The position numbers and the translations under genes are program-made. A stretch of DNA of 32,000 nucleotides, taken from the NCBI GenBank assembly GCA_963718915.1, contig CAVRAI010000009.1, forward strand, positions 30,001 to 62,000, in the 5' to 3' direction. Positions 1,776 to 31,441 of the stretch are shown here, in pieces. Source of the DNA: an uncultured Chloroflexia bacterium (GTDB lineage Bacteria; Chloroflexota; Ktedonobacteria; Ktedonobacterales; JADMIN01). Within the stretch, counting starts at the first letter, position 1, and each line of letters starts with the position of its first letter. Under the pieces are notes generated by a model that searched no databases, was not told where the DNA came from, and saw only the letters and a list, made by a program, of their open reading frames with translations.

Positions 1776-2288
1776 ATGAGCATCCATATCAACCCGATCT
1801 ACCTCACTGTCGTGATTCTTGCCTGGTTCGCCGTCTATCACCTCGCCTATGCATTTATCGCCATCGCACGCGACCACTCGCTGGTCGGCTGGAGCATCGG
1901 CCCATTGGGCATCAGCGCGATCACAATGCGGGAGCCACCGGTCCGCCAGGTCATCACCCAACTCCTCTGCGCCGCGCTGGCCCTCGCCGGCGCCTCATAT
2001 GTCAGCCTTTATCTGCTCACGCCTCCGCCCATTGCCGGGCTGCGCCAGTCGGTCTCGGCGCAGCTGATCGTGGTGGCGATCCCTGTCGCGGCATTGACAT
2101 TCTGGCGGATACTGGCGCTGCTGCGCGAGCGGCGCTTCCCACTCTGGGGCGAGGCGCGCGTGCTGGCAAGCATCCAGCGAACCCGCGCCACCGGGGCGCT
2201 GATCTTCTTCACGGCGCTGGGGAAGACCTTTCTGCGCGAGCGTTTCGGCGCGACACCGGGCGAATTCTTGCGCACAGCGCGCTTCTAA
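1776..2288 (+). CDS. hypothetical integral membrane protein
   Basis: ORF 1770..2288. ATG at 1776 has GGAGGTG just upstream. Several hydrophobic helices are visible (LTVVILAWFAVYHLAYAFIAI, LLCAALALAGASYVSLYLL, LIVVAIPVAALTFWRILALL). No family recognised. Confidence 0.55.
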   Translation: MSIHINPIYLTVVILAWFAVYHLAYAFIAIARDHSLVGWSIGPLGISAITMREPPVRQVITQLLCAALALAGASYVSLYLLTPPPIAGLRQSVSAQLIVVAIPVAALTFWRILALLRERRFPLWGEARVLASIQRTRATGALIFFTALGKTFLRERFGATPGEFLRTARF

Positions 2289-2323
2289 GCCATTCCCCTG
2301 AAGAGAATTGAGGAATCGTGACG

Positions 2324-2710
2324 ATGCCAGATGAGCCTGATATCTCTGACCCGCCATTGACGACCGATCCGAACTGCCTCTTCTGCCGCATCATCGCCGG
2401 TAGCATTCCCAGCACGCAAGTCTATCGCGACGACGACGTGATTGCCTTTCGTGACCGCAATCCCCAGGCGCCGACGCATGTGCTGGTCATCCCGCGTCGG
2501 CATGTCACAGGCATCAACGCGCCCGAGGCCGCCGATGGGCCGATGCTGGCGGCGATGGTGCGCGCGGCGAACGCGGTGGCGCGGGCCGAGGGAATCGTCG
2601 AGAGCGGCTTCCGGCTCGTCTGGAACGTCGGACACGACGCGGGCCAGAGCGTCTTTCACCTGCACCTGCATCTGCTCGGTGGCCGTCCGCTCGGCTGGCC
2701 GCCGGGATAA
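2324..2710 (+). CDS. HIT (histidine triad) family nucleotide hydrolase
   Basis: CLFCRI...VIAFRD...PTHVLVIPRRH followed by the histidine triad HLHLHLLGG. ATG 2324 has GAGGAA 8 nt upstream; the GTG at 2318 is too close to the RBS. Confidence 0.9.
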   Translation: MPDEPDISDPPLTTDPNCLFCRIIAGSIPSTQVYRDDDVIAFRDRNPQAPTHVLVIPRRHVTGINAPEAADGPMLAAMVRAANAVARAEGIVESGFRLVWNVGHDAGQSVFHLHLHLLGGRPLGWPPG

Positions 2711-3998: not shown

Positions 3999-4073
3999 GC
4001 GGGAGTGGCTCAGGGGTAGAGCATCTCCTTGCCAAGGAGAAGGTCGCGGGTTCGAATCCCGTCTCCCGCTCCA
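3999..4073 (+). tRNA. tRNA-Gly (anticodon GCC), CCA encoded
   Basis: Cloverleaf folded by hand. Acceptor GCGGGAG/CTCCCGC, anticodon stem TCTCC/GGAGA with loop TTGCCAA, T arm GCGGG-TTCGAAT-CCCGT, discriminator T then CCA. Confidence 0.9.
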
Positions 4074-4077
4074 TCGC

Positions 4078-4148
4078 GGCGACGTCGCCAAGTGGTAAGG
4101 CAAGGGTCTGCAAAACCCTCATCACCGGTTCGAATCCGGTCGTCGCCT
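4078..4148 (+). tRNA. tRNA-Cys (anticodon GCA), no encoded CCA
   Basis: Acceptor GGCGACG/CGTCGCC, anticodon loop CTGCAAA, T arm CCGGTTCGAATCCGG. It starts 4 nt after tRNA-Gly, and the 3' flank reads CCG. Confidence 0.9.
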
Positions 4149-4218: not shown

Positions 4219-5734
4219 CTTCCCTTTAGGGCACGATCTACACCCTTACCCCGAAACATTTTAGACCCTTATCAGAGCCTGAAAACAGCATCAGTATATC
4301 AAATTTGCCTCGGCCACGCAATGCGGTTGCTCAGAGAGCCTTTGTAGAGCCAATGGCTAACTGTCAGCAATGCACGTTGTATGTGCCATTTTTATAGTGA
4401 TACCCATTGGTTATCGAAGAAGATGGGTTTCACAGTAGCCCATACCTCTCTCCCCATCCGCCAAACTCATTTGCCGACAGGTCATGCCGCAACTGATGCC
4501 CCGATATGCGGGAAAAACGCCGTCTGCTTCTGGCCGAGAAAGCGCCATATAGCTGAGTTGGCGCTTTTGTGGCAACGATTCGAGGAGGCTGGCGCTCAGA
4601 TGGCCACGCGCAAAAGTGCGCTTTTGGCCAAGAGCACGCCGCCATAGCCAGCATCCATGTGCGCATGAGAGCCGATAGGATGCCGATCGGCCCTGGCAAA
4701 GTCTTGACGACTAGTACGACAGTTGCAGATAGCGGCGTGATGTGTCACCAATACCCTGAAGCCGAAAGGAGTCAGGGCATGGAGACGATGAAGACCGGCG
4801 AACTGACCAGGGAGGAGGTCTCCTCCTGGAGCGCGGGGCTGACGGAGGTGCAGGAGCGCATTGGGCCGCGCTTCGCCCGATCCTAGCAACGGCAACGGAT
4901 GGGGCGCTATCTCGACGGATTACTGAGTCCGGTCGAACGCAAGAACGGCTGGCAACTCGCCGAGCACGCGGGGCACGCGGGCGAGGCGCGTCCGTATGGC
5001 ATGCAGCGCTTGTTGGCAGGCGCGAAGTGGGATGCCAACGCCGTGCGCGACGACCTACGCGCGTATGTGGTGGAGCATCTGGGCGACCCACGCGCGGTGC
5101 TAGTCATTGATGAGACCGGGTTTCTCAAACACGGCGCGAAATCAGTGGGTGTCAGGCGCCAGTACAGCGGAACGGCAGGACGCATCGAGAACTGTCAGAT
5201 CGGCGTGTTTCTGACCTATGCCGCGCCGCAAGGGCATGTCCTCTTGGACCGGGAACTCTACCTGCCGCGTGAGTGGGCCGACGCTGCCGCGCGCCGTCAG
5301 GAGGCGGGCGTGCCGGAGGCGGTGACGTTTGCCACCAAGCCCGAACTCGCGCGCCAGATGCTGGCGCGGGCGCTGGACGCGGAGGTACCTGCCGCCTGGG
5401 TGACAGGCGACAGCATCTACGGCGGGGATCGACGGTTGCGCGTCTGGCTGGAGCAGCAGGAGCAGCCGTTTGTGTTGGCGGTCGCCAAAGACAAACCGTT
5501 GTGGGCCGTGCTCGACGAGCAGTGGGGCCAGCCGCGCGCCGACGTCATCGCCGCGCACATCCCGGCTGAGGCGTGGCAACGCCTCTCTGCGGGCGCCGGG
5601 GCGAAGGGACCGCGCTGGTACGACTGGGCGCGTATGCCGCTGGCGCGGCTGCAACTGACTGCCGAGGAGCGGCGCTGGGAGCACGGGGTGCTGGTGCGCC
5701 GCAGCCGCAGTGATCCGACTGAACTCGCCTACTA

Positions 5735-5754
5735 CGTGGTGTTTCGTGGTGTTT
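5735..5754. repeat. 10-bp tandem duplication CGTGGTGTTT x2 (frameshifting)
   Basis: Read directly. It shifts the transposase from YYVVF... into the frame containing [25 protein letters not shown]. Confidence 0.9.
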
Positions 5755-5822
5755 GCGCCAACGGGAACCGCCCTGCAGACGCTGGTACGGGTGGCAGGGC
5801 AGCGCTGGCGCATCGAGCAGAG

Positions 5823-5849
5823 CTTCGAACTCTTCGAACTCTTCGAACT
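5823..5849. repeat. 9-bp tandem repeat CTTCGAACT x3 (in-frame)
   Basis: Read directly. It inserts extra LFE units in ...[21 protein letters not shown].... Confidence 0.9.
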
Positions 5850-5883
5850 CGCCAAGGGTGAAGTTGGGCTGGATCAGTATGAG

Positions 5884-5893
5884 GTGCGGTGCG
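5884..5893. repeat. 5-bp tandem duplication GTGCG x2 (frameshifting)
   Basis: Removing one copy restores [30 protein letters not shown], the conserved IS701 C-terminal block. Confidence 0.8.
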
Positions 5894-6124
5894 GCGCTGG
5901 GATGGCTGGTATCGCCACATGACGCTGGCGATGTTCGCGCTGGCCTACCTCGCGGTCTTACGTGCCCGATGGCAGGCCCAGCCGACGCAACAGGGGCCGG
6001 TGTCACCTGGCGCGACCTCGACCGCAGTCGCAAAAGGGGGCCGAATCAGCAGTCGGTCGACCTGAGCGTCGACCTCGTACCGTTGACTATCCCAGAGATT
6101 CGGCATGTGCTCTGGGCCTTGGGG

Positions 6125-6159
6125 CAGGCGGTCTCCGCGCAGGCGGTCTCCGCGCAGGC
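6125..6159. repeat. 15-bp tandem duplication CAGGCGGTCTCCGCG x2 plus a 5-nt partial
   Basis: Read directly. It duplicates QAVSA in the transposase C-terminus. Confidence 0.9.
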
Positions 6160-6277
6160 AACGCCCCACGTGGTCAACTGGTCTGCATGGCGGCGACGCC
6201 ACCAAGCACAGGCCAAGCGCTGCCACTACCAGCGTCACTTGGCACGTACTTGACCACTAACTGCAACTGTAATACTA

Positions 6278-6520
6278 GTGTCGGGTCAGATACGAGATGG
6301 CTTCCTGACAGGTGCGGTCACAGGTCTCTTTGGATGGATATTGGCGATTATTATTGAAGATGTGTATCTTGACCTTTTTGTTTTTCAACAACCAGATGTA
6401 GCAGATTCGATTCGCCGCCAAATTTTGGAAGCGATAATTGTCGGTGTAATTGGATCCTGCATCGGCGCACTAGGTGGCGTGGTCAGTCGCAGACGCGCGA
6501 AGGCAAAGTCAAGGAAATAG
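6278..6520 (+). CDS. hypothetical small membrane protein (two predicted TM helices, basic tail)
   Basis: 80-aa ORF with FLTGAVTGLFGWILAIIIEDV and ILEAIIVGVIGSCIGALGGVV, then SRRRAKAKSRK. Codon usage is A/T-rich, unlike the host. The only start is a GTG overlapping the IS right tip, with an in-frame TGA just upstream in the reconstructed empty site. Confidence 0.3.
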   Translation: MSGQIRDGFLTGAVTGLFGWILAIIIEDVYLDLFVFQQPDVADSIRRQILEAIIVGVIGSCIGALGGVVSRRRAKAKSRK

Positions 6521-6598: not shown

Positions 6599-7003
6599 AT
6601 GCACGCCAACCGTCTCGGTATTGAAAGCACGATGAAGAAACCCAAGAGTACTGAAGAGATCGCGAAGCTGCTGGAGCGGGAGAGCGAGGACGACGCCCTC
6701 TGGGAACAGGAGCCAGTTCCTGTCGAAAGGCGGCCAAATCGAACATCTGTTCTCTCGCTCCGCCTGCCAACCACAGAGTTTCATGCGTTGTTGAAAGCAG
6801 CGCGCAGTTCGGGCGAATCAGCCTCCGAGTATGTTCGGAAGGCGATTGCCATGCGCCTGAGCTATCAGCCAGAATCGCCAGTCGTCAACGTCTCCTGTAC
6901 CTACGTTGGAATGCCTGATGAGGTAGAGCAGCCGAACTGGAGAACATACACGTCTGGCAATCCGCAGGCTGAGCCTGACCAAACCGGTACGAAACAGGAA
7001 TAG
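6599..7003 (+). CDS. ribbon-helix-helix (CopG/antitoxin-like) domain protein
   Basis: RHH-like segment SVLSLRLPTTEFHALLKAARSSGESASEYVRKAIAMRL (beta strand plus two helices). Alternative start at ATG 6632 (MKKPKS). No toxin partner is recognisable next to it. Confidence 0.6.
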   Translation: MHANRLGIESTMKKPKSTEEIAKLLERESEDDALWEQEPVPVERRPNRTSVLSLRLPTTEFHALLKAARSSGESASEYVRKAIAMRLSYQPESPVVNVSCTYVGMPDEVEQPNWRTYTSGNPQAEPDQTGTKQE

Positions 7004-7139: not shown

Positions 7140-7826
7140 CTACTCGCGTTTCTCCGTACGCTCTGGCCGCAAAGATGCGGGGATGACCTCAGGCTCTACC
7201 TTGCGCCACTCGACCTCAAATGCGCCGTTGAAACCGAAAAGCGGACCCCAGACGCGATTGTGTACGTTGACGTCGATGTGGAAGCGCTGATCCTTATCGT
7301 CGTACCACTCGCAGACATCGGCGATGCCGGAGAACAGTAGCGGGAAGCTAAAGCCCACGACGCCCTCGTACAAGCGCTGGTCGCCGGATCGCAGCCTGAG
7401 GCCGCCGCGCTCATCCACCTTGAGGTCAAGATCGACGGCGAGATGCTCGTCGCTTCCCAGATAATCCACGACGCAGCCGCATCGCTCGCTGTAGACCATG
7501 TAGGCGTCGAAGCGCCGTATGCGTCGGGTGTGGAATGTGCGAATCCAACTCACACTCTCGCGGCCTATCTCATCGACGAAGGCATAGTTCTCAATGGTGA
7601 AGGGTACATTGCGCCCGTGTTCGGGGAACATGATGCGTCGCCATGAGCCGATGTACAGGAAGGGCAAGGTATACGGAGCGCCATGCCAGATCTTGTCCAT
7701 GACGCCCGTGCCAATCGAGGCGATGCCGTCGCAGCTTTTCAGGCCGAAGCGGCGCTGTATCCGCGGATGCAGCCGCGCAAACTCTGATCCCAATGCCTGC
7801 TGGTAGATGGATGTCGTAGGTGTCAT
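7140..7826 (-). CDS. DUF4166 domain-containing protein
   Basis: Start at ATG 7826 (AGGAGC upstream). MTPTTSIYQQALGSEFARLHPRIQRRF... matches my recollection of the DUF4166 family, which co-occurs with DoxX-like/SRPBCC genes. The longer ORF up to 8069 runs into the IS end and is rejected. Confidence 0.8.
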   Translation of the reverse strand: MTPTTSIYQQALGSEFARLHPRIQRRFGLKSCDGIASIGTGVMDKIWHGAPYTLPFLYIGSWRRIMFPEHGRNVPFTIENYAFVDEIGRESVSWIRTFHTRRIRRFDAYMVYSERCGCVVDYLGSDEHLAVDLDLKVDERGGLRLRSGDQRLYEGVVGFSFPLLFSGIADVCEWYDDKDQRFHIDVNVHNRVWGPLFGFNGAFEVEWRKVEPEVIPASLRPERTEKRE

Positions 7827-7927
7827 GCAGGCCGCTCCTGGCGCTTGCGTCGGCAACGCCCTGCGAACGGACTTGCCGCGCCTGCGATCAAGCCGATGAC
7901 CGATAGCACAATGACGGAGAGGTTGAG
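7823..7927 (-). pseudogene. displaced 3' fragment (last 34 codons plus stop) of the IS-interrupted SRPBCC-DoxX gene
   Basis: Reads LNLSVIVLSVIGLIAGAASPFAGRCRRKRQERPA*, a hydrophobic helix plus basic tail. It joins in frame to ...AAFNPIT at 9183. Its TGA overlaps the DUF4166 ATG (ATGA coupling). Confidence 0.7.
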
Positions 7928-8090
7928 AGTCAACAACCCCCGCTTGAAAGCGGGGGCTTGCAGCTAGCCCGCGAGGGCCGCCGCGTCTGGCCGATTGACT
8001 GCGGCCCGGCTGCGAATATTCACCGCCGCGTTCACGTCGGCATGGGCGGAGAACCCACACGATCTGCAAAGGAACTTCGATTGACTCTTC
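7928..8090 (-). ncRNA. predicted omega-RNA (reRNA) scaffold overlapping the tnpB 3' end and right end; extent approximate
   Basis: By analogy with characterised TnpB systems, the guide RNA is made from the tnpB 3' end and RE. The terminal hairpin at 7937-7956 sits just inside the inferred RE. The guide would be the flanking TCTCAACCTCTCCGTC... (7928 downward). Confidence 0.35.
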
Positions 8091-9073
8091 CGATTTGCCT
8101 TTTCACAATGCCCACAGGCGCTACAGGTCTGGCTGGTATACGCTGGATTGACGTACACCACGCGCACGCCTGCCAGCGCCGCCTTGTAGGCAATGAAGGC
8201 GCGGAGTTGGAAGAAACCCCAACTATGCGGCACTCTCCGGTGGCGTTTGCGAACCGTTTTCCCAGCGCGCTCGCGGATGCCCTGCAAATCTTCGAGGGCA
8301 ATCCCGCGCTGGGTGCCTTTCGCCGTGCTGACAATCGCCTTCGACAGACAGTGGTTCACGTCCCTGACAAATCGCTTTTCGCGTCCACTGCGCTTTTTGA
8401 GCAACCGTTTCGCGCTCTTGGTACCCTTCTTCTGGAGCTTCTGTCGGAAGCGGCTATACCGAGCGCGCACCTGATTCACATGGCTGTGCTTTGGGCCAGC
8501 CGAGTAGTTCAGAAATTCGCCATCACTCGTGGTTGCCAGTTGGATGATGCCCAAGTCCACGCCGAGAAAATCATCCGTCTCGGTTGGCGGGGGTTCCGGC
8601 GCATCCACGGTAATCGCCAGAAAGAAGGTGTTAGTGGATGCGCGGTAGAGCAAGTCCGCTTGTCCGCGCGTGCGTTGGAGCATCCCTTCGGCATATACGC
8701 CAAAGCGGAACGGTACTTCTACCCGCCCGTCCAGCGTCAAGAGGGAGGCGCGATCAATGCGTGGGAACGAGAGAATGCGCTCATCGTAGACCATCGCGCC
8801 ATGCGGGCGAAAATGTGGCTGCTTCGACTTGTCGCGTTTGTAGGCTTCGCTCACCTTGCTAATCGCCCGTATCGTCATCTGCGACGACAGGCCAAACTGC
8901 TCACGGATGTCGTAGTAGACCAGCCGTTGCAAGGCAATCTTGTTGGCGCACCGCTCGCGAAAGGCCACCACCGCAATCACGTTGCAGGCGGCGTTGAATC
9001 GTTCCAGTGTCCGCAACAAGGCGGCATGCTGGTCAGGGGTCGGAGCCAGTTTGACGAGCAATGTTTGTTTCAT
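7964..9073 (-). CDS. tnpB: TnpB, RNA-guided RuvC-like nuclease (IS200/IS605 OrfB)
   Basis: 369 aa. RuvC triad contexts FLGVDLGI, GIALEDL and AHADVNAAVNI. Zn finger CSACGH...CRSCG. N-terminal MKQTLLVKL.P...Q is typical of OrfB_IS605. The ORF is intact. Confidence 0.95.
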   Translation of the reverse strand: MKQTLLVKLAPTPDQHAALLRTLERFNAACNVIAVVAFRERCANKIALQRLVYYDIREQFGLSSQMTIRAISKVSEAYKRDKSKQPHFRPHGAMVYDERILSFPRIDRASLLTLDGRVEVPFRFGVYAEGMLQRTRGQADLLYRASTNTFFLAITVDAPEPPPTETDDFLGVDLGIIQLATTSDGEFLNYSAGPKHSHVNQVRARYSRFRQKLQKKGTKSAKRLLKKRSGREKRFVRDVNHCLSKAIVSTAKGTQRGIALEDLQGIRERAGKTVRKRHRRVPHSWGFFQLRAFIAYKAALAGVRVVYVNPAYTSQTCSACGHCEKANRKSQSKFLCRSCGFSAHADVNAAVNIRSRAAVNRPDAAALAG

Positions 9074-9079
9074 AGAACA

Positions 9080-9108
9080 AGTGTATCATGATTGAGTGTG
9101 TGCTTCAA
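9080..9108 (-). promoter_or_regulatory. candidate promoter for tnpB (would give a leaderless mRNA)
   Basis: Minus strand reads TTGAAG (9108-9103), 17 nt, TACACT (9085-9080), then only 6 nt (TGTTCT) before ATG 9073. No Shine-Dalgarno sequence is present. Confidence 0.3.
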
Positions 9109-9983
9109 TCAGTCAGTACCGCCTGCGGGCGGCGGCGCATTCCTCCCCGCCATAAATGGACGGGGCTTCCTGCGCCGTTTCCTGTGATTGGATTGAACGC
9201 CGCGCCCAGGTATTGCGGCGAACGCAAGGCCACACCGATGGTTGCCGCCAGCATCAACGGGATGTTCAAGGCCAGCGGCCAGCGCTTGCGCCAGGTTGCC
9301 AGCAGGAGCACGCCAAATGCTACTTCGCACACACCGAGGAGCCGCACGAGTGTAGGCGCAGCACCGGCTGAGATGCCCGCGTTGAGCAGCATTGTCACCT
9401 CGTCGCGCTGCGTCAGCAACAGCTTCGGTACCAGGCCGTGGTAGAACCAGATAGCCGCAAGGGTGAGTCGCGCGAACGCATGAATGACGCTGTTGCGTAG
9501 CGACGAGGCGGGATCAATGCCGCGCTCGATCCAGAGACGCAGCCGGTCGAAGCTCCAGGCCGTCGCCCATCCTATGAGCGGGCGGAAGAGGATGGCGTCG
9601 AAGAGTTGGCCGAGCCGCCCGAACCGGGTACGGTAATCATACCAGGTGAGAAACTGGATGCCGCCGTCCTGCTGCACATAGCTCCAGTATCCCGACCCTT
9701 CGACGATGAGCGATTTGAGATCGTCGGACCAGAACTTCAGGGCGGAGGTGCGGCGATCCTCCGTCTCGCGTGTGCCAACACTCTCGCCCGCGCCGCTGAT
9801 ATCCAGGCCGAAACCGATGCGCGTGGCATAGCGGAAGCGTTGCGGCTCGGCGAGTGAGGGTCGCGGCAAGTAGTCGATGCTGGAGAAGCGGAGGTCCCAG
9901 CGCTGGTGGAGGTCCGGCGTCTGTGCCTTCTGCCAGAGATCCTCCATGTCGCCGTGGATCAGCGTCTCCACATAGATGCCCAT
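9105..9983 (-). CDS. SRPBCC (polyketide cyclase/START-like) plus DoxX-like membrane domain fusion, 3' end replaced by IS sequence
   Basis: The N-terminal half is soluble and SRPBCC-like. The C-terminal half is DoxX-like helices (LTLAAIWFYHGLVPKLL, VRLLGVCEVAFGVLLLA, LMLAATIGVAL). After ...FNPIT (9183) the last 26 aa (GNGAGSPVHLWRGGMRRRPQAVLTD) are encoded by the IS left end. Confidence 0.8.
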   Translation of the reverse strand: MGIYVETLIHGDMEDLWQKAQTPDLHQRWDLRFSSIDYLPRPSLAEPQRFRYATRIGFGLDISGAGESVGTRETEDRRTSALKFWSDDLKSLIVEGSGYWSYVQQDGGIQFLTWYDYRTRFGRLGQLFDAILFRPLIGWATAWSFDRLRLWIERGIDPASSLRNSVIHAFARLTLAAIWFYHGLVPKLLLTQRDEVTMLLNAGISAGAAPTLVRLLGVCEVAFGVLLLATWRKRWPLALNIPLMLAATIGVALRSPQYLGAAFNPITGNGAGSPVHLWRGGMRRRPQAVLTD

Positions 9984-13181: not shown

Positions 13182-13312
13182 GCAGCGACCTCCACAGCGA
13201 AATCAGCCGAGAGGTGACGTCAGTGTCACCCTCGCGCGGGTATTGCAACCAGTATAGCGGCTCTATGCAAGAGGGGGCAGGCGACGCGCATGAGCGAGGG
13301 GCAATTGGAGGC

Positions 13313-13425
13313 GGCTGGCGACTAAAGTCGCGCCTGAAGGGCCTGCGGCCACAAAACCCGCCTGCGCGGGTTGCAGACCATGGCTAGAGACCATGGCCAT
13401 TGAGGCGCGGTTTCAACCGCCCGCG
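13313..13425. repeat. nested-palindrome intergenic repeat, copy A (short form)
   Basis: Left arm GGCTGGCGACTAAAGTCGCGCCTGAAGGGCC plus GCCACAAAACCCGCCTGCGCGGGTT. Right arm GGCCATTGAGGCGCGGTTTCAACCGCCCGCGG. Contains an imperfect 13-bp tandem duplication (AGACCATGGC twice, 13375-13397). Confidence 0.85.
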
Positions 13426-13505
13426 GAATGCCCAGATCGAAAGCCCATTATATATTCATGCGCGCCCCAGCGCGGCGCGGCTGGCCGAAATTCGTCGCGC
13501 ATCTG

Positions 13506-22350: not shown

Positions 22351-22424
22351 GAACCCTGTGCCTCCGCGCCTCCTGCGCTATACTGATCGTACACGAGAGT
22401 TGGCGATGGAAGCGGGCTTATGAT

Positions 22425-22596
22425 GGCGGGCGGTTAAAACCGCGCCTCGATGGCCTCGCTTACGCTCCGCCACGAAGTCCGCCTCCGCGGACTCTTGAGA
22501 TCTCTCTCGATAGCAGCCAGTCGTGATGGGCTGTTGAAACCCGCGCAGGCGGGTTTTGTGGCCGTAGGCCATTCAGGCGCGGTTTTAACCGCCCGC
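22425..22596. repeat. nested-palindrome intergenic repeat, copy B (full form, about 170 bp)
   Basis: Terminal arms GGCGGGCGGTTAAAACCGCGCCTCGATGGCC and GGCCATTCAGGCGCGGTTTTAACCGCCCGC. Inner arms GCCACGAAGTCCGCCTCCGCGGACT and AAACCCGCGCAGGCGGGTTTTGTGGC. It lies in the divergent ybaK/hydrolase intergenic region. Confidence 0.9.
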
Positions 22597-22638
22597 GTTC
22601 CCACATCACCACAACCCGCCAGCAAGGAGGCGTATCTC

Positions 22639-26214: not shown

Positions 26215-26282
26215 GAATGGCAAGCGAACACGCTGGCGGCGGCATGACGTCGTTTTACAAAATAGTGCGGGCACGCCAGATC

Positions 26283-26457
26283 GGCTGGCGGTTAAAACCG
26301 CGCCTGAAGGGCCTCGCTGACGCTCCGCCACAAAACCTGCCTGCGCAGGTTCACAGAACCGCATGCCAACGGGTATCCCATTGGGACGCGGTCTGGACAG
26401 TCCGCGCAGGCGGACTTCGTGGCCGCAGGCCCTTCAGGCGCGGTTTCAACCGCCCGC
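26283..26457. repeat. nested-palindrome intergenic repeat, copy C (full form, about 175 bp)
   Basis: Arms GGCTGGCGGTTAAAACCGCGCCTGAAGGGCC and GGCCCTTCAGGCGCGGTTTCAACCGCCCGCG. Inner arms GCCACAAAACCTGCCTGCGCAGGTT and AGTCCGCGCAGGCGGACTTCGTGGC. Confidence 0.9.
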
Positions 26458-26531
26458 GCTCCGCTGTGGCGGGATTACTCTGTCCGTCGCAAATGCTATA
26501 ACTACATCATGCCGCGAAGGTGGGTTACTTC

Positions 26532-26883: not shown

Positions 26884-27061
26884 ATGTTGCTCCTATCTAT
26901 GGAAATGTCCATGCGTGCCAGACTTGCCATGCATGTGACAGCGTAAGATTCAGTCCTTGCACCTATTACTGCGCGCGGGCATCATGGGTTGTAGAAATGG
27001 CGGCAGGCAAACAGGCGTATCTCAGAAGTAATACCATCTCCAGATGAGATGCGTCTGCTAG

Positions 27062-27116
27062 CCCGCGCAGGCGGGCTTGGTGGCCGTAGGCCCATAGGCG
27101 CGGCTTCAGCCGCCAG
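27062..27116. repeat. nested-palindrome intergenic repeat, copy D (right half only)
   Basis: CCCGCGCAGGCGGGCTTGGTGGCCGTAGGCCCATAGGCGCGGCTTCAGCCGCCAGC aligns with the right halves of copies B and C. It overlaps the last codons and stop of the sigma-factor gene. Confidence 0.8.
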
Positions 27117-29386: not shown

Positions 29387-31441
29387 ATGGCAACGACGCA
29401 GTTCCCCGTATCGTCCGCGACGACGACCGACTGGCTTTCGCCCGCCGAGATGCGCACGCTCGAAGCTGTCTGCGAAGCCCTGTTCCCGTCGACGCCACCA
29501 CCCACGGGCGAGAGCGATCCCGATGGCTACTACGCGCGCTCCGCGACCGATCTTGGGGTTGCCACATTGATCGCCGAGGCGCTTAGCCAGCAGTCCACCG
29601 AGACGCGCGCGCAGTTCAAGCAGTTGCTCGGCCTGATGGGCAAACCGCTCTTCGGGATGCTGCTCCTGGGGCGACCACAGCGCTTCGACCGCATGTCGCT
29701 CGTGGCCCGCGCCGCCGCGCTGCGCAAGATGCGCGATAGCTCGCTGCCCGCGCTCCGTCAGGGGTTTCAGGGATTGAAGCGGCTGACAGGCTTCGTCTAC
29801 TTTGGCGCGCCCATCGCCGATGGCCCCAATCCCAACTGGCCAACGCTCGCCTATCCCACGCCGCCCGCGGCGCCGTCGCCATCCACTTTCCCCAAACGCA
29901 TTCGACCGCTGGAGGTACATGGCGACCAGACGCTCACCGCTGACGTTGTGATTGTCGGCTCAGGCGCGGGCGGCGGCGTGATGGCTGGCGAGCTGGCGGC
30001 GGCGGGCAAAGATGTGGTGATCCTGGAAAAAGGCGGCTACTTCAGCGAGTCAGACTTCACGGGCGTCGAGGCGCAGATGATGCCGGAACTCTATCTGCGA
30101 CGCGGCATGCTCTCCACCGCCGACCTCTCGGTGGTCGTCCAGGCTGGCTCGTGTCTGGGCGGCGGCACGCTCGTCAACTGGAGCACGTCGCTGCGCACCC
30201 CGCCGGAGGTGCTGGCGGAGTGGGAACGCGACTATGGCTTTGCGGGCGCGACCTCGTCCGAGTACGCGCATGGCTTCGACGCGGCTGAGCAGCGCCTTGG
30301 CGTCAACACCGACGATAGCGCGCCCAACCGCAATAACGCGGCGCTCCAGCGCGGCTGCGAGGCGCTTGGCTATAGCTGGTCGAGCATTCCCCGTAACGCA
30401 TCGGGCTGCGAGCAGCGCTGCGGCTATTGCGGCTTTGGCTGTCCTCACGGGCGCAAGCAGTCCACGATGCTCACCTATCTCCAGGACGCCCACGACCGTG
30501 GCGCTCGTATCCTGGTGCGCTGCGCCGTCGAGCGCGTGGTGATCGAGCGGGGCAAGGTGACGGGGGTGGAGAGCTGGGCGACGGATAGCGAGACAGGTGA
30601 GCGGCGGCGAGTGATTGTGCGCGCGCCGCTGGTCGTCGTCGCGGGCGGCTCGGTGGAGTCCCCGGCGCTGCTGCTGCGCTCGGGGCTGGAGAACCCCAAC
30701 ATCGGACGCCACCTGCGGCTGCATCCGGTAGCGGCGTCCGGAGCGCTCTATCCCGACCCCATCGAGACGTGGACCGGCAGCCTGCAGACCGTCTATACCG
30801 ACCACTTCGCGCGCATCCGGGGCGACTATGGCTTCCGCATCGAGGTGATGCCCGCGCATCCAGGGCTGCTAGGGCTGGCGACCACATGGAACAGCGGTCA
30901 GGAACTCAAGCAGCTTATGACGCGGATTCGTCAGCAGGCGGTCTATATCGTGCTGACGCGCGATACAGGCGAGGGGCATATCACGCTCGATAAGCAGGGC
31001 GATCCGGTGCTGCATTACTGGCCGAATGCGGTGGACCGTGGCCATCTGACGCGCGGGATGCAGGAGGTGACGCGCATTGGGTTCGCCGGGGGCGCCACCG
31101 CCGTCAACCACAACTTCTCGCCCCTGCTCTCGCTGCAGAGCGAAGAGGGCAAACCAGGCGCGGTCGCTGATGCCACGATGAAGCGCTACCTGGCGGAGAT
31201 CGAGCGCCAGGGGATTGCGCCGAACCGCGTGATCGTCGGCACGGCGCACCAGATGGGCACGTGTCGGCTGGGTGGCAGCGCGAAGACGGCGGTCGCCCGG
31301 CCCGATGGGCAGGTCTATGGCGTCGAGGGACTCTATATCGGCGACGCCAGCGGCTTCCCGACGGCGTCTGGCGTTAACCCGATGCTCTCAACGATGGCGC
31401 TGGCATACCATGTCGCGCGGCAGATCACGGCACGGGGGTAA
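29387..31441 (+). CDS. GMC-family FAD oxidoreductase with long N-terminal extension (long-chain alcohol oxidase-like)
   Basis: ATG 29387 (AAGGAGA RBS). FAD fold VVIVGSGAGGGVMAGELAAAGKDVVILEKG, C-terminal GMC signature AHQMGTCRLG...GLYIGDASGFPTASGVNPMLSTMALA. About 190 aa precede the FAD fold. Confidence 0.9.
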   Translation: MATTQFPVSSATTTDWLSPAEMRTLEAVCEALFPSTPPPTGESDPDGYYARSATDLGVATLIAEALSQQSTETRAQFKQLLGLMGKPLFGMLLLGRPQRFDRMSLVARAAALRKMRDSSLPALRQGFQGLKRLTGFVYFGAPIADGPNPNWPTLAYPTPPAAPSPSTFPKRIRPLEVHGDQTLTADVVIVGSGAGGGVMAGELAAAGKDVVILEKGGYFSESDFTGVEAQMMPELYLRRGMLSTADLSVVVQAGSCLGGGTLVNWSTSLRTPPEVLAEWERDYGFAGATSSEYAHGFDAAEQRLGVNTDDSAPNRNNAALQRGCEALGYSWSSIPRNASGCEQRCGYCGFGCPHGRKQSTMLTYLQDAHDRGARILVRCAVERVVIERGKVTGVESWATDSETGERRRVIVRAPLVVVAGGSVESPALLLRSGLENPNIGRHLRLHPVAASGALYPDPIETWTGSLQTVYTDHFARIRGDYGFRIEVMPAHPGLLGLATTWNSGQELKQLMTRIRQQAVYIVLTRDTGEGHITLDKQGDPVLHYWPNAVDRGHLTRGMQEVTRIGFAGGATAVNHNFSPLLSLQSEEGKPGAVADATMKRYLAEIERQGIAPNRVIVGTAHQMGTCRLGGSAKTAVARPDGQVYGVEGLYIGDASGFPTASGVNPMLSTMALAYHVARQITARG

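Follow-up and report, generated by a model that had tools for sequence, protein, structure and literature searches.

Among the systems described so far, those closest to the transposable element reported here are IS608 of Helicobacter pylori, the TnpB/omega RNA system of ISDra2 from Deinococcus radiodurans, the tnpB-only elements of the IS1341 group, such as the approximately 50 non-autonomous ISGst elements of Geobacillus stearothermophilus, and Cas12f, the effector of type V-F CRISPR (clustered regularly interspaced short palindromic repeats) systems. Our element resides in a 32,000-nucleotide (nt) stretch of DNA, hereafter called the window, which corresponds to positions 30,001 to 62,000 of contig CAVRAI010000009.1 (assembly GCA_963718915.1) of an uncultured Chloroflexia bacterium placed in the Ktedonobacterales (Chloroflexota). 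It is very probably a tnpB-only, IS1341-like element of the IS200/IS605 family of insertion sequences (ISs), inserted 3' of the tetranucleotide TCAC in codon 267 of a gene encoding an SRPBCC-DoxX_3 protein (Table 1).

IS608 carries, on one strand, a subterminal imperfect hairpin near either end, and generates no target duplication. The tetranucleotide cleaved on the left is external to the element, the one cleaved on the right forms its last 4 nt, and a 4-nt guide is located 5' of each hairpin. All of these features recur at the locus described here. The two elements differ in their cleavage motifs and guides (TTAC/TCAA with AAAG/GAAT in IS608, TCAC/TGAC with GAAG/CAAG in our element), in the lack of tnpA in the latter, and in the sequences of their TnpB proteins, which are distant.

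In the case of ISDra2, an RNA of about 150 nt, originating in the 3' end of tnpB and the right end of the element, carries approximately 16 nt of the flank as a guide (PMC8612924). According to the published model, the natural target of the resulting complex is the donor joint left by excision (bioRxiv 10.1101/2023.03.14.532601). Our element resembles this system (omega RNA is also referred to as reRNA, right-end element RNA) in the D/E/D residues of the RuvC domain and the zinc finger of TnpB, in the structured RNA that the 3' end of tnpB and the right end are predicted to encode, in the guide expected from the right flank, in a transposon-adjacent motif (TAM) that equals the target motif of the transposase, and in the donor joint as the expected natural target. 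It differs in its predicted TAM, which is the 4-nt TCAC instead of TTGAT, and in being non-autonomous.

The ISGst elements are also tnpB-only, with conserved left and right ends; they occur in multiple copies in related genomes, are presumed to be mobilised in trans, and leave empty sites that can be reconstructed from relatives. Their TAM is AT-rich, unlike the G/C-containing motif found here, and the host of our element belongs to the Chloroflexota (Ktedonobacterales). Cas12f provides the best matches among solved structures over the RuvC and zinc-finger half of the TnpB protein; in contrast to the Cas12f systems, no CRISPR array is present here and the gene lies inside transposon ends.

Table 1. 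Features of the tnpB-only element and of the operon that it interrupts (positions are those of the window).
Feature	Position	Strand	Remarks
Complete tnpB-only IS200/IS605-family element	7929..9183	minus	1,255 bp; non-autonomous; bounds from flank divergence points
TCAC, left cleavage/target motif and predicted TAM	9184..9187	minus	host-gene sequence flanking the element
TGAC, right-end cleavage motif	7929..7932	minus	forms the final 4 nt of the element
Left-end subterminal imperfect hairpin CCCCGTCCATTTATGGCGGGG	9145..9165	minus	DNA fold; 4-nt guide GAAG at 9169..9166
Right-end subterminal hairpin CCCCCGCTTTCAAGCGGGGG	7937..7956	minus	DNA fold; 4-nt guide CAAG at 7960..7957
Interval between left-end structures and tnpB ATG	9074..9120	minus	weak promoter-like TTGAAG-17-TACACT, TG before it
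tnpB	7964..9073	minus	369 amino acids (aa), intact
Predicted omega-RNA scaffold, minimal conserved part	7929..8030	minus	three helices; overlaps tnpB 3' end and right end
Predicted omega-RNA guide/target TCTCAACCTCTCCGTC	7913..7928	minus	first 16 nt of right flank; from right-end boundary
DoxX-like open reading frame (ORF) as it stands	9105..9983	minus	292 aa; native codons 1-267 = 9184..9983
Severed 3' part of host gene	7823..7928	minus	34 codons and stop; last transmembrane helix, basic tail; conserved in homologues
DUF4166 gene	7140..7826	minus	Pfam E 3e-58

Ends of the element and its target motif

The exact right end of the element has no exact match in the metagenome contigs scanned, and no record of the exact TnpB protein was found in public collections. 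Since the same IS was not found elsewhere, relatives with about 82% DNA identity were used to define the ends. BLASTN comparison with 30 related copies (related copies are 1,243-1,293 bp long) revealed similarity that sets in some 4 nt ahead of the left boundary and ceases at the right one. In the related Ktedonobacterales genomes, TCAC lies directly 5' of the element in all 25 independent left flanks, where the preceding base is a pyrimidine in 21 cases, and the element starts of the related copies read A(G/T)AAA.... All 35 right ends found terminate with TGAC, and the flanks are unrelated from the very next base. These copies place the ends of the element in the window at ...ATCAC / A...GAC / TCTCAACC (slashes mark the boundaries). 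No target duplication accompanies the insertion, and the two flanks can be joined in frame without a scar. The element inserts 3' of a specific tetranucleotide, TCAC, without target duplication, and the constancy of this motif in the left flanks designates 5'-TCAC as the predicted TAM.

These boundaries agree with most of what had been deduced from the window itself. The original prediction placed the ends at 7928-9182, i.e. one nt away from the coordinates given here; the two placements are equivalent, owing to a 1-nt A/T ambiguity, and ours coincides with an alternative that had been given in brackets. It had also proposed the lack of a target duplication, the presence of the TAM 5' of the left end, and a guide encoded by the right flank, which was found to begin exactly with TCTCAACCTCTCCGTC. 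Other copies of the element had been suggested as a means of fixing the ends and the TAM, and the copies in relatives indeed supplied TCAC on the left and TGAC on the right.

Both subterminal hairpins are located on the tnpB sense strand, and their left and right sequences co-vary between element subfamilies. The left hairpin starts 18 nt after TCAC and the right one ends 8 nt before the terminus, values similar to the distances of 19 nt (left) and 10 nt (right) between cleavage site and hairpin in IS608 (PMC3201880). In IS608, the 4-nt guide 5' of each hairpin reads the cleavage tetranucleotide, guide position 1 pairing with position 2 of the cleavage site and guide position 2 with its position 1 (PMC3201880). 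In the element described here, the two cleavage motifs differ by C versus G, and the two guides show the corresponding G versus C. An additional pair, between position 4 of the cleavage site and position 4 of the guide, was reportedly described by Barabas and co-workers in 2008. Both combinations, TCAC/GAAG on the left and TGAC/CAAG on the right, form canonical pairs at all positions of the IS608 rule. The sequences of the ends strongly suggest mobilisation by a transposase of the Y1 TnpA type.

The interrupted host gene

From position 9983 down to 7140, the minus strand carries three genes in head-to-tail order: the DoxX-like ORF, tnpB and the DUF4166 gene. In its present form, the DoxX-like ORF matches only positions 1-95 of the 102 positions of the Pfam DoxX_3 profile (E 8.4e-22). 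Joining 9983..9184 to 7928..7823 generates an uninterrupted ORF of 301 aa that ends with ...NPITLNLSVIVLSVIGLIAGAASPFAGRCRRKRQERPA and a TGA stop codon, which overlaps the ATG of the DUF4166 gene as ATGA. With the joined protein, the DoxX_3 match widens to positions 1-101 of 102 (84 bits, E 1.2e-23). The reconstructed empty site reads ...AATCCAATCAC/TCTCAACCTC..., and this join, from ATCAC to TCTCAAC inside codon 267, is the only one that keeps the reading frame.

Protein searches identified homologues of the reconstructed protein that are 301 aa long, with 87-92% identity and 96-100% query coverage; one of them, P0006, is assigned by NCBI to a Ktedonobacterales bacterium. The six closest homologues are all of this length, and all carry the tail that is encoded beyond the element in the window. 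In the alignment, the window ORF tracks the family as far as ...AAFNPIT267 and then diverges completely, so that its final 25 residues align with nothing; the reconstructed tail LNLSVIVLSVIGLIAGAASPFAGRCRRKRQERPA agrees with the family, whose close members end with LNLSV...GRCRRKRxERxA. Moreover, on the contigs of four relatives (L001-L004) the gene is uninterrupted and overlaps the DUF4166 gene by 4 nt. When the element is removed, the window is colinear with these loci over the junction, with no break, at 87-91.5% DNA identity. The closest of the four empty sites (L004) reads ...CCGATCAC/GCTCAATC... (GATCAC/GCTCAAT), with TCAC in the same place. The DoxX-like gene is split, and is not naturally short.

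Pfam (E<=10) contains no family that matches the N-terminal domain (residues 1-165), and structure prediction was therefore applied. In the predicted structure of the host protein (mean predicted local distance difference test score, pLDDT, 87.7), an N-terminal helix-grip domain is followed by four long helices. Foldseek related the N-terminal domain to the START, Bet v 1 and ARO/CYC folds (TTHA0849, TcmN ARO/CYC and START domains), with target TM-scores of up to 0.78. The last of the four helices in the model (residues 265-284) is exactly the part that has been severed. The model supports the view that the interrupted gene encodes a two-domain membrane protein, composed of an SRPBCC-fold domain and a DoxX_3 domain.

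The interruption of the gene, its restoration to 301 codons upon deletion of the element, and the overlap of its TGA with the start of the DUF4166 gene had all been anticipated, and the comparison with uninterrupted loci of relatives, proposed at the same time, spoke against a natural ending at 292 aa. Two points required adjustment. The C-terminal tail is IS-encoded, as claimed, although it comprises 25 residues (267 native plus 25 = 292) and not 26. The SRPBCC label could not be derived from Pfam and is instead supported by the predicted structure and the folds retrieved with Foldseek.

The severed 34-codon tail shares its reading frame with tnpB (7823-7966, minus strand), from which it is separated by the tnpB TAG stop codon and 12 codons of the right end. 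This is probably a chance coincidence (1 in 3).

Outside the two-gene operon, the synteny of the window is unlike that of the relatives. In the window, the operon is followed by a small ORF encoding a ribbon-helix-helix/NikA-like protein (6599-7003, plus strand) and an IS, and an MFS transporter is encoded upstream, whereas in the relatives a nucleotidyltransferase-like gene and a two-component system are located downstream, and a 212-aa hypothetical protein is encoded upstream.

TnpB and its relatives

The TnpB protein matches the Pfam families Cas12f1-like_TNB (PF07282) and OrfB_IS605 (PF01385), both above gathering scores, and scores 198.6 bits with the NCBIfam model guided_TnpB (NF040570, 'RNA-guided endonuclease TnpB'; cutoff 100). 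The score with the NCBIfam Cas12f2 model is 139.6 bits (cutoff 450). Among the structures in the PDB, Cas12f gave the best match (9nzq, E 4.5e-31, over the RuvC and zinc-finger half), and the match to ISDra2 TnpB was weak (E 6e-10). The RuvC motifs GVD173LG, ALE261DL and HAD346VN are all present and align with the same motifs of Cas12f 9nzq, as do the two cysteine pairs of the zinc finger (C317/C320 and C336/C339, in the arrangement C317xxC and C336xxC). Judging from the matched ranges (165-359 in our protein and 183-374 in ISDra2 TnpB), the offsets of D173, E261 and D346 appear to fit D191, E278 and D361 of ISDra2. Relatives match the protein over residues 1-369, i.e. over its full length. 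The earlier description of TnpB as intact holds with respect to its length, the three acidic residues in the RuvC motifs and both CxxC pairs, and we consider the protein, on the basis of these motifs, a predicted RNA-guided nuclease.

When one genome per species was scanned, 80 loci encoding relatives of this TnpB were found. The best of these proteins are 90% identical to it and occur in one metagenome-assembled genome (MAG) of an uncultured Chloroflexia bacterium, in at least 14 copies that are nearly identical to one another and reside at different sites, which is consistent with activity. Others are encoded in several MAGs of Ktedonobacterales. The element is a new, as yet unnamed, IS200/IS605 family member in the Ktedonobacterales.

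The promoter-like motif upstream of tnpB is kept in related copies as TTGACG...TGATACAC, and its sequence suggests that it may serve as a promoter. A promoter and terminator scan of the element detected no promoter site on the tnpB strand (TTGAAG-17-TACACT remained below the threshold) and no intrinsic terminator.

The structured 3' region and the predicted guide

Analysis with RNAalifold revealed that the last approximately 100 nt form three helices common to 23 diverse elements. In this structure 96.5% of the cells are paired (26-51% in slid controls), and changes on both sides of a pair occur in 50 cells, compared with 17.5 in shuffled alignments, none of which (0/500) reached 50. The single-sequence fold of the region has a z value of -3.0. 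Because of the frequent G-U pairs, the structure is assigned to the tnpB sense strand.

By the model established for ISDra2, the predicted guide would start at position 7928 and the TAM would be TCAC. In the occupied site the guide sequence is preceded by TGAC. Position 2 of this motif deviates from the TAM, a mismatch that, in the published model, would spare the occupied site from cleavage by TnpB.

Searches of the element against Rfam, at gathering or E<=1 thresholds, detected no match to an omega RNA or a group I intron. The only hit, to HEARO (an IscB-associated RNA; 7929-8022, plus strand), starts exactly at the element end, but it lies antisense and was rejected as noise (19.7 bits, E 0.21; gathering score 83).

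Alternative explanations

Several observations weigh against the interpretation of the locus as an IS200/IS605-family insertion with a guide RNA of its own. The TnpB protein scores far below the cutoffs of both curated models, IS200_TnpB (72 bits) and IS607_TnpB (73.6 bits), and the family assignment therefore rests on the ends and not on the protein. There is no tnpA in the element, which is therefore non-autonomous, and none in the 32-kb window, so the mobilising transposase is assumed. At the closest empty site (L004) the first base of the flank is G, instead of T as in the window, and the predicted empty site TTCAATCCAATCACTCTCAACCTCTCCG has no exact match in the metagenome contigs scanned. 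Finally, the three conserved helices overlap both the end of the tnpB coding sequence and the TnpA-binding hairpin, so their conservation could in part reflect DNA or protein functions, and the guide length of 16 nt, as well as the ends of the omega RNA, are taken over from ISDra2 (PMC8612924).

The protein scores leave room for an element of the IS607 family, mobilised by a serine recombinase, since TnpB occurs in both families and the two models score about equally. We consider this highly improbable in view of the same-strand subterminal hairpins at both ends, the 4-nt target motif present on the left only, and the pairing of guides with cleavage sites, which obeys the Y1 TnpA rule at both ends; in addition, no serine recombinase is seen in the window. 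The lack of a linked tnpA is not unusual, as a nearby tnpA can be identified for only about 25% of tnpB genes, the rest of which are still family members (bioRxiv 10.1101/2023.03.14.532601). A crude screen of the 80 loci for HUH/Y motifs found no tnpA. Using tblastn, with an IS608 TnpA sequence as the query, we then found a single one, at locus L071 of an Abditibacterium MAG (2026-2450, minus strand). This Y1_Tnp (IS200-like) gene is divergent from the adjacent tnpB, whose product shows 44% identity to TnpB of the window, and it links one distant relative to a Y1 transposase. It is split over two reading frames and represents either a pseudogene or an assembly error. In terms of sequence, our element displays the same-strand subterminal hairpins (in place of terminal inverted repeats), the target motif and the guide pairing of the IS200/IS605 family, and lacks a Y1 TnpA of its own.

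It is also very unlikely that tnpB is domesticated or decaying, i.e. that it encodes a TldR-like guide-RNA repressor or represents a dead relic. The lack of tnpA in cis, the single copy in the window, and the failure to find the exact protein in public collections would fit such a scenario. They are outweighed by the intact D173, E261 and D346 residues and CxxC pairs, by both ends being complete and canonical, and by the multiple copies of close relatives at unrelated sites; moreover, the interruption of a conserved gene points to a recent selfish event.

The sense orientation of the element within a coding sequence is reminiscent of IStrons, but the possibility that it is spliced from the host mRNA, leaving the DoxX gene functional, is negligible, because the distance from the left end to the tnpB ATG is only 110 nt and there is no match to a group I intron or, apart from the insignificant antisense HEARO hit, to any other Rfam family. 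Equally negligible is a natural ending of the DoxX-like gene at 292 aa, with the 34-codon stretch as a chance or relic ORF and tnpB as an intergenic gene: the 292-aa ORF is indeed open and has a stop codon, but this explanation is refuted by the uniform 301-aa length and aligned tail of the close homologues, the unaligned last 25 residues, the completion of the DoxX_3 profile by the reconstruction only, and the colinearity of the empty loci over the junction.

Other repeats and mobile elements of the window

Another mobile element (4899-6357, plus strand), containing an ORF for a DDE_5 (IS701-like) transposase (E 1e-49), is located just downstream of two tRNA genes (3999-4070 and 4078-4148). 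Overlapping ORFs beyond position 5753 suggest a frameshift or truncation of this element. The window also contains a family of palindromic repeats resembling repetitive extragenic palindromes (REP) or bacterial interspersed mosaic elements (BIME), with a unit of approximately CCGCGCAGGCGGGTTTTGTGGCCGYAGGCCCTTCAGGCGCGGTTTYAACCGCC (13312-13429, 22424-22601, 26282-26462 and 27060-27093). Copies often form inverted pairs about 110 nt apart in intergenic regions. At 246-315 and 2701-2760, in or beside ORFs, there are perfect tandem repeats with units of 9 nt (ATCGCCAGT) and 12 nt (GCCGGGATAATG).

Proposed mechanism and significance

We propose that a Y1 (HUH) TnpA encoded elsewhere in the genome mobilised the element, and that single-strand 'peel-and-paste' transposition placed it 3' of TCAC. 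The transposase would bind the subterminal hairpin at each end and would find TCAC (left) and TGAC (right) via pairing with GAAG and CAAG, located 5' of these hairpins. Transcription through the right end would add a guide beginning with TCTCAACCTCTCCGTC to the scaffold of about 100 nt or more, and TnpB, together with this omega RNA, would recognise TCAC followed by the guide sequence, i.e. the scarless donor joint present after excision. A cut at this joint would let recombination copy the element back. We infer mobilisation in trans, use of the guide, homing and the consequences for expression by analogy with the published ISDra2, IS608 and Geobacillus elements; by the same analogy, TnpB and the omega RNA may be expressed and may cleave the empty site.

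As for the host, the DoxX-like protein loses its last transmembrane helix and gains 25 foreign residues, and the DUF4166 gene loses its translational coupling to the upstream gene; its expression may be impaired. Read-through transcription into the DUF4166 gene is plausible, since the element has the same orientation as the operon and a terminator was not detected. With regard to annotation, the 292-aa 'DoxX-like' ORF should be regarded as a disrupted gene and not as a variant, the true locus being a two-gene SRPBCC-DoxX_3/DUF4166 operon.

The mechanism considered here is already known, and our analysis confirms, but does not extend, the published model of peel-and-paste transposition and homing. 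What the locus provides is a worked example from the Ktedonobacterales (Chloroflexota), in which the sequence by itself reveals the ends, the TAM, the right-end motif, the DNA guides and the predicted RNA guide. Separately, the co-oriented insertion may let the promoter of the host operon drive expression of tnpB and the omega RNA. The TnpB protein is nearer to Cas12f structures than to ISDra2 TnpB, and its predicted TAM is short and contains G/C; it is conceivable, though rather doubtful, that the protein, if active, could be a candidate for a compact editor with an unusual targeting range. Should the protein prove to be an active nuclease, it would provide a data point for the TnpB lineages that lie near the origin of Cas12f.

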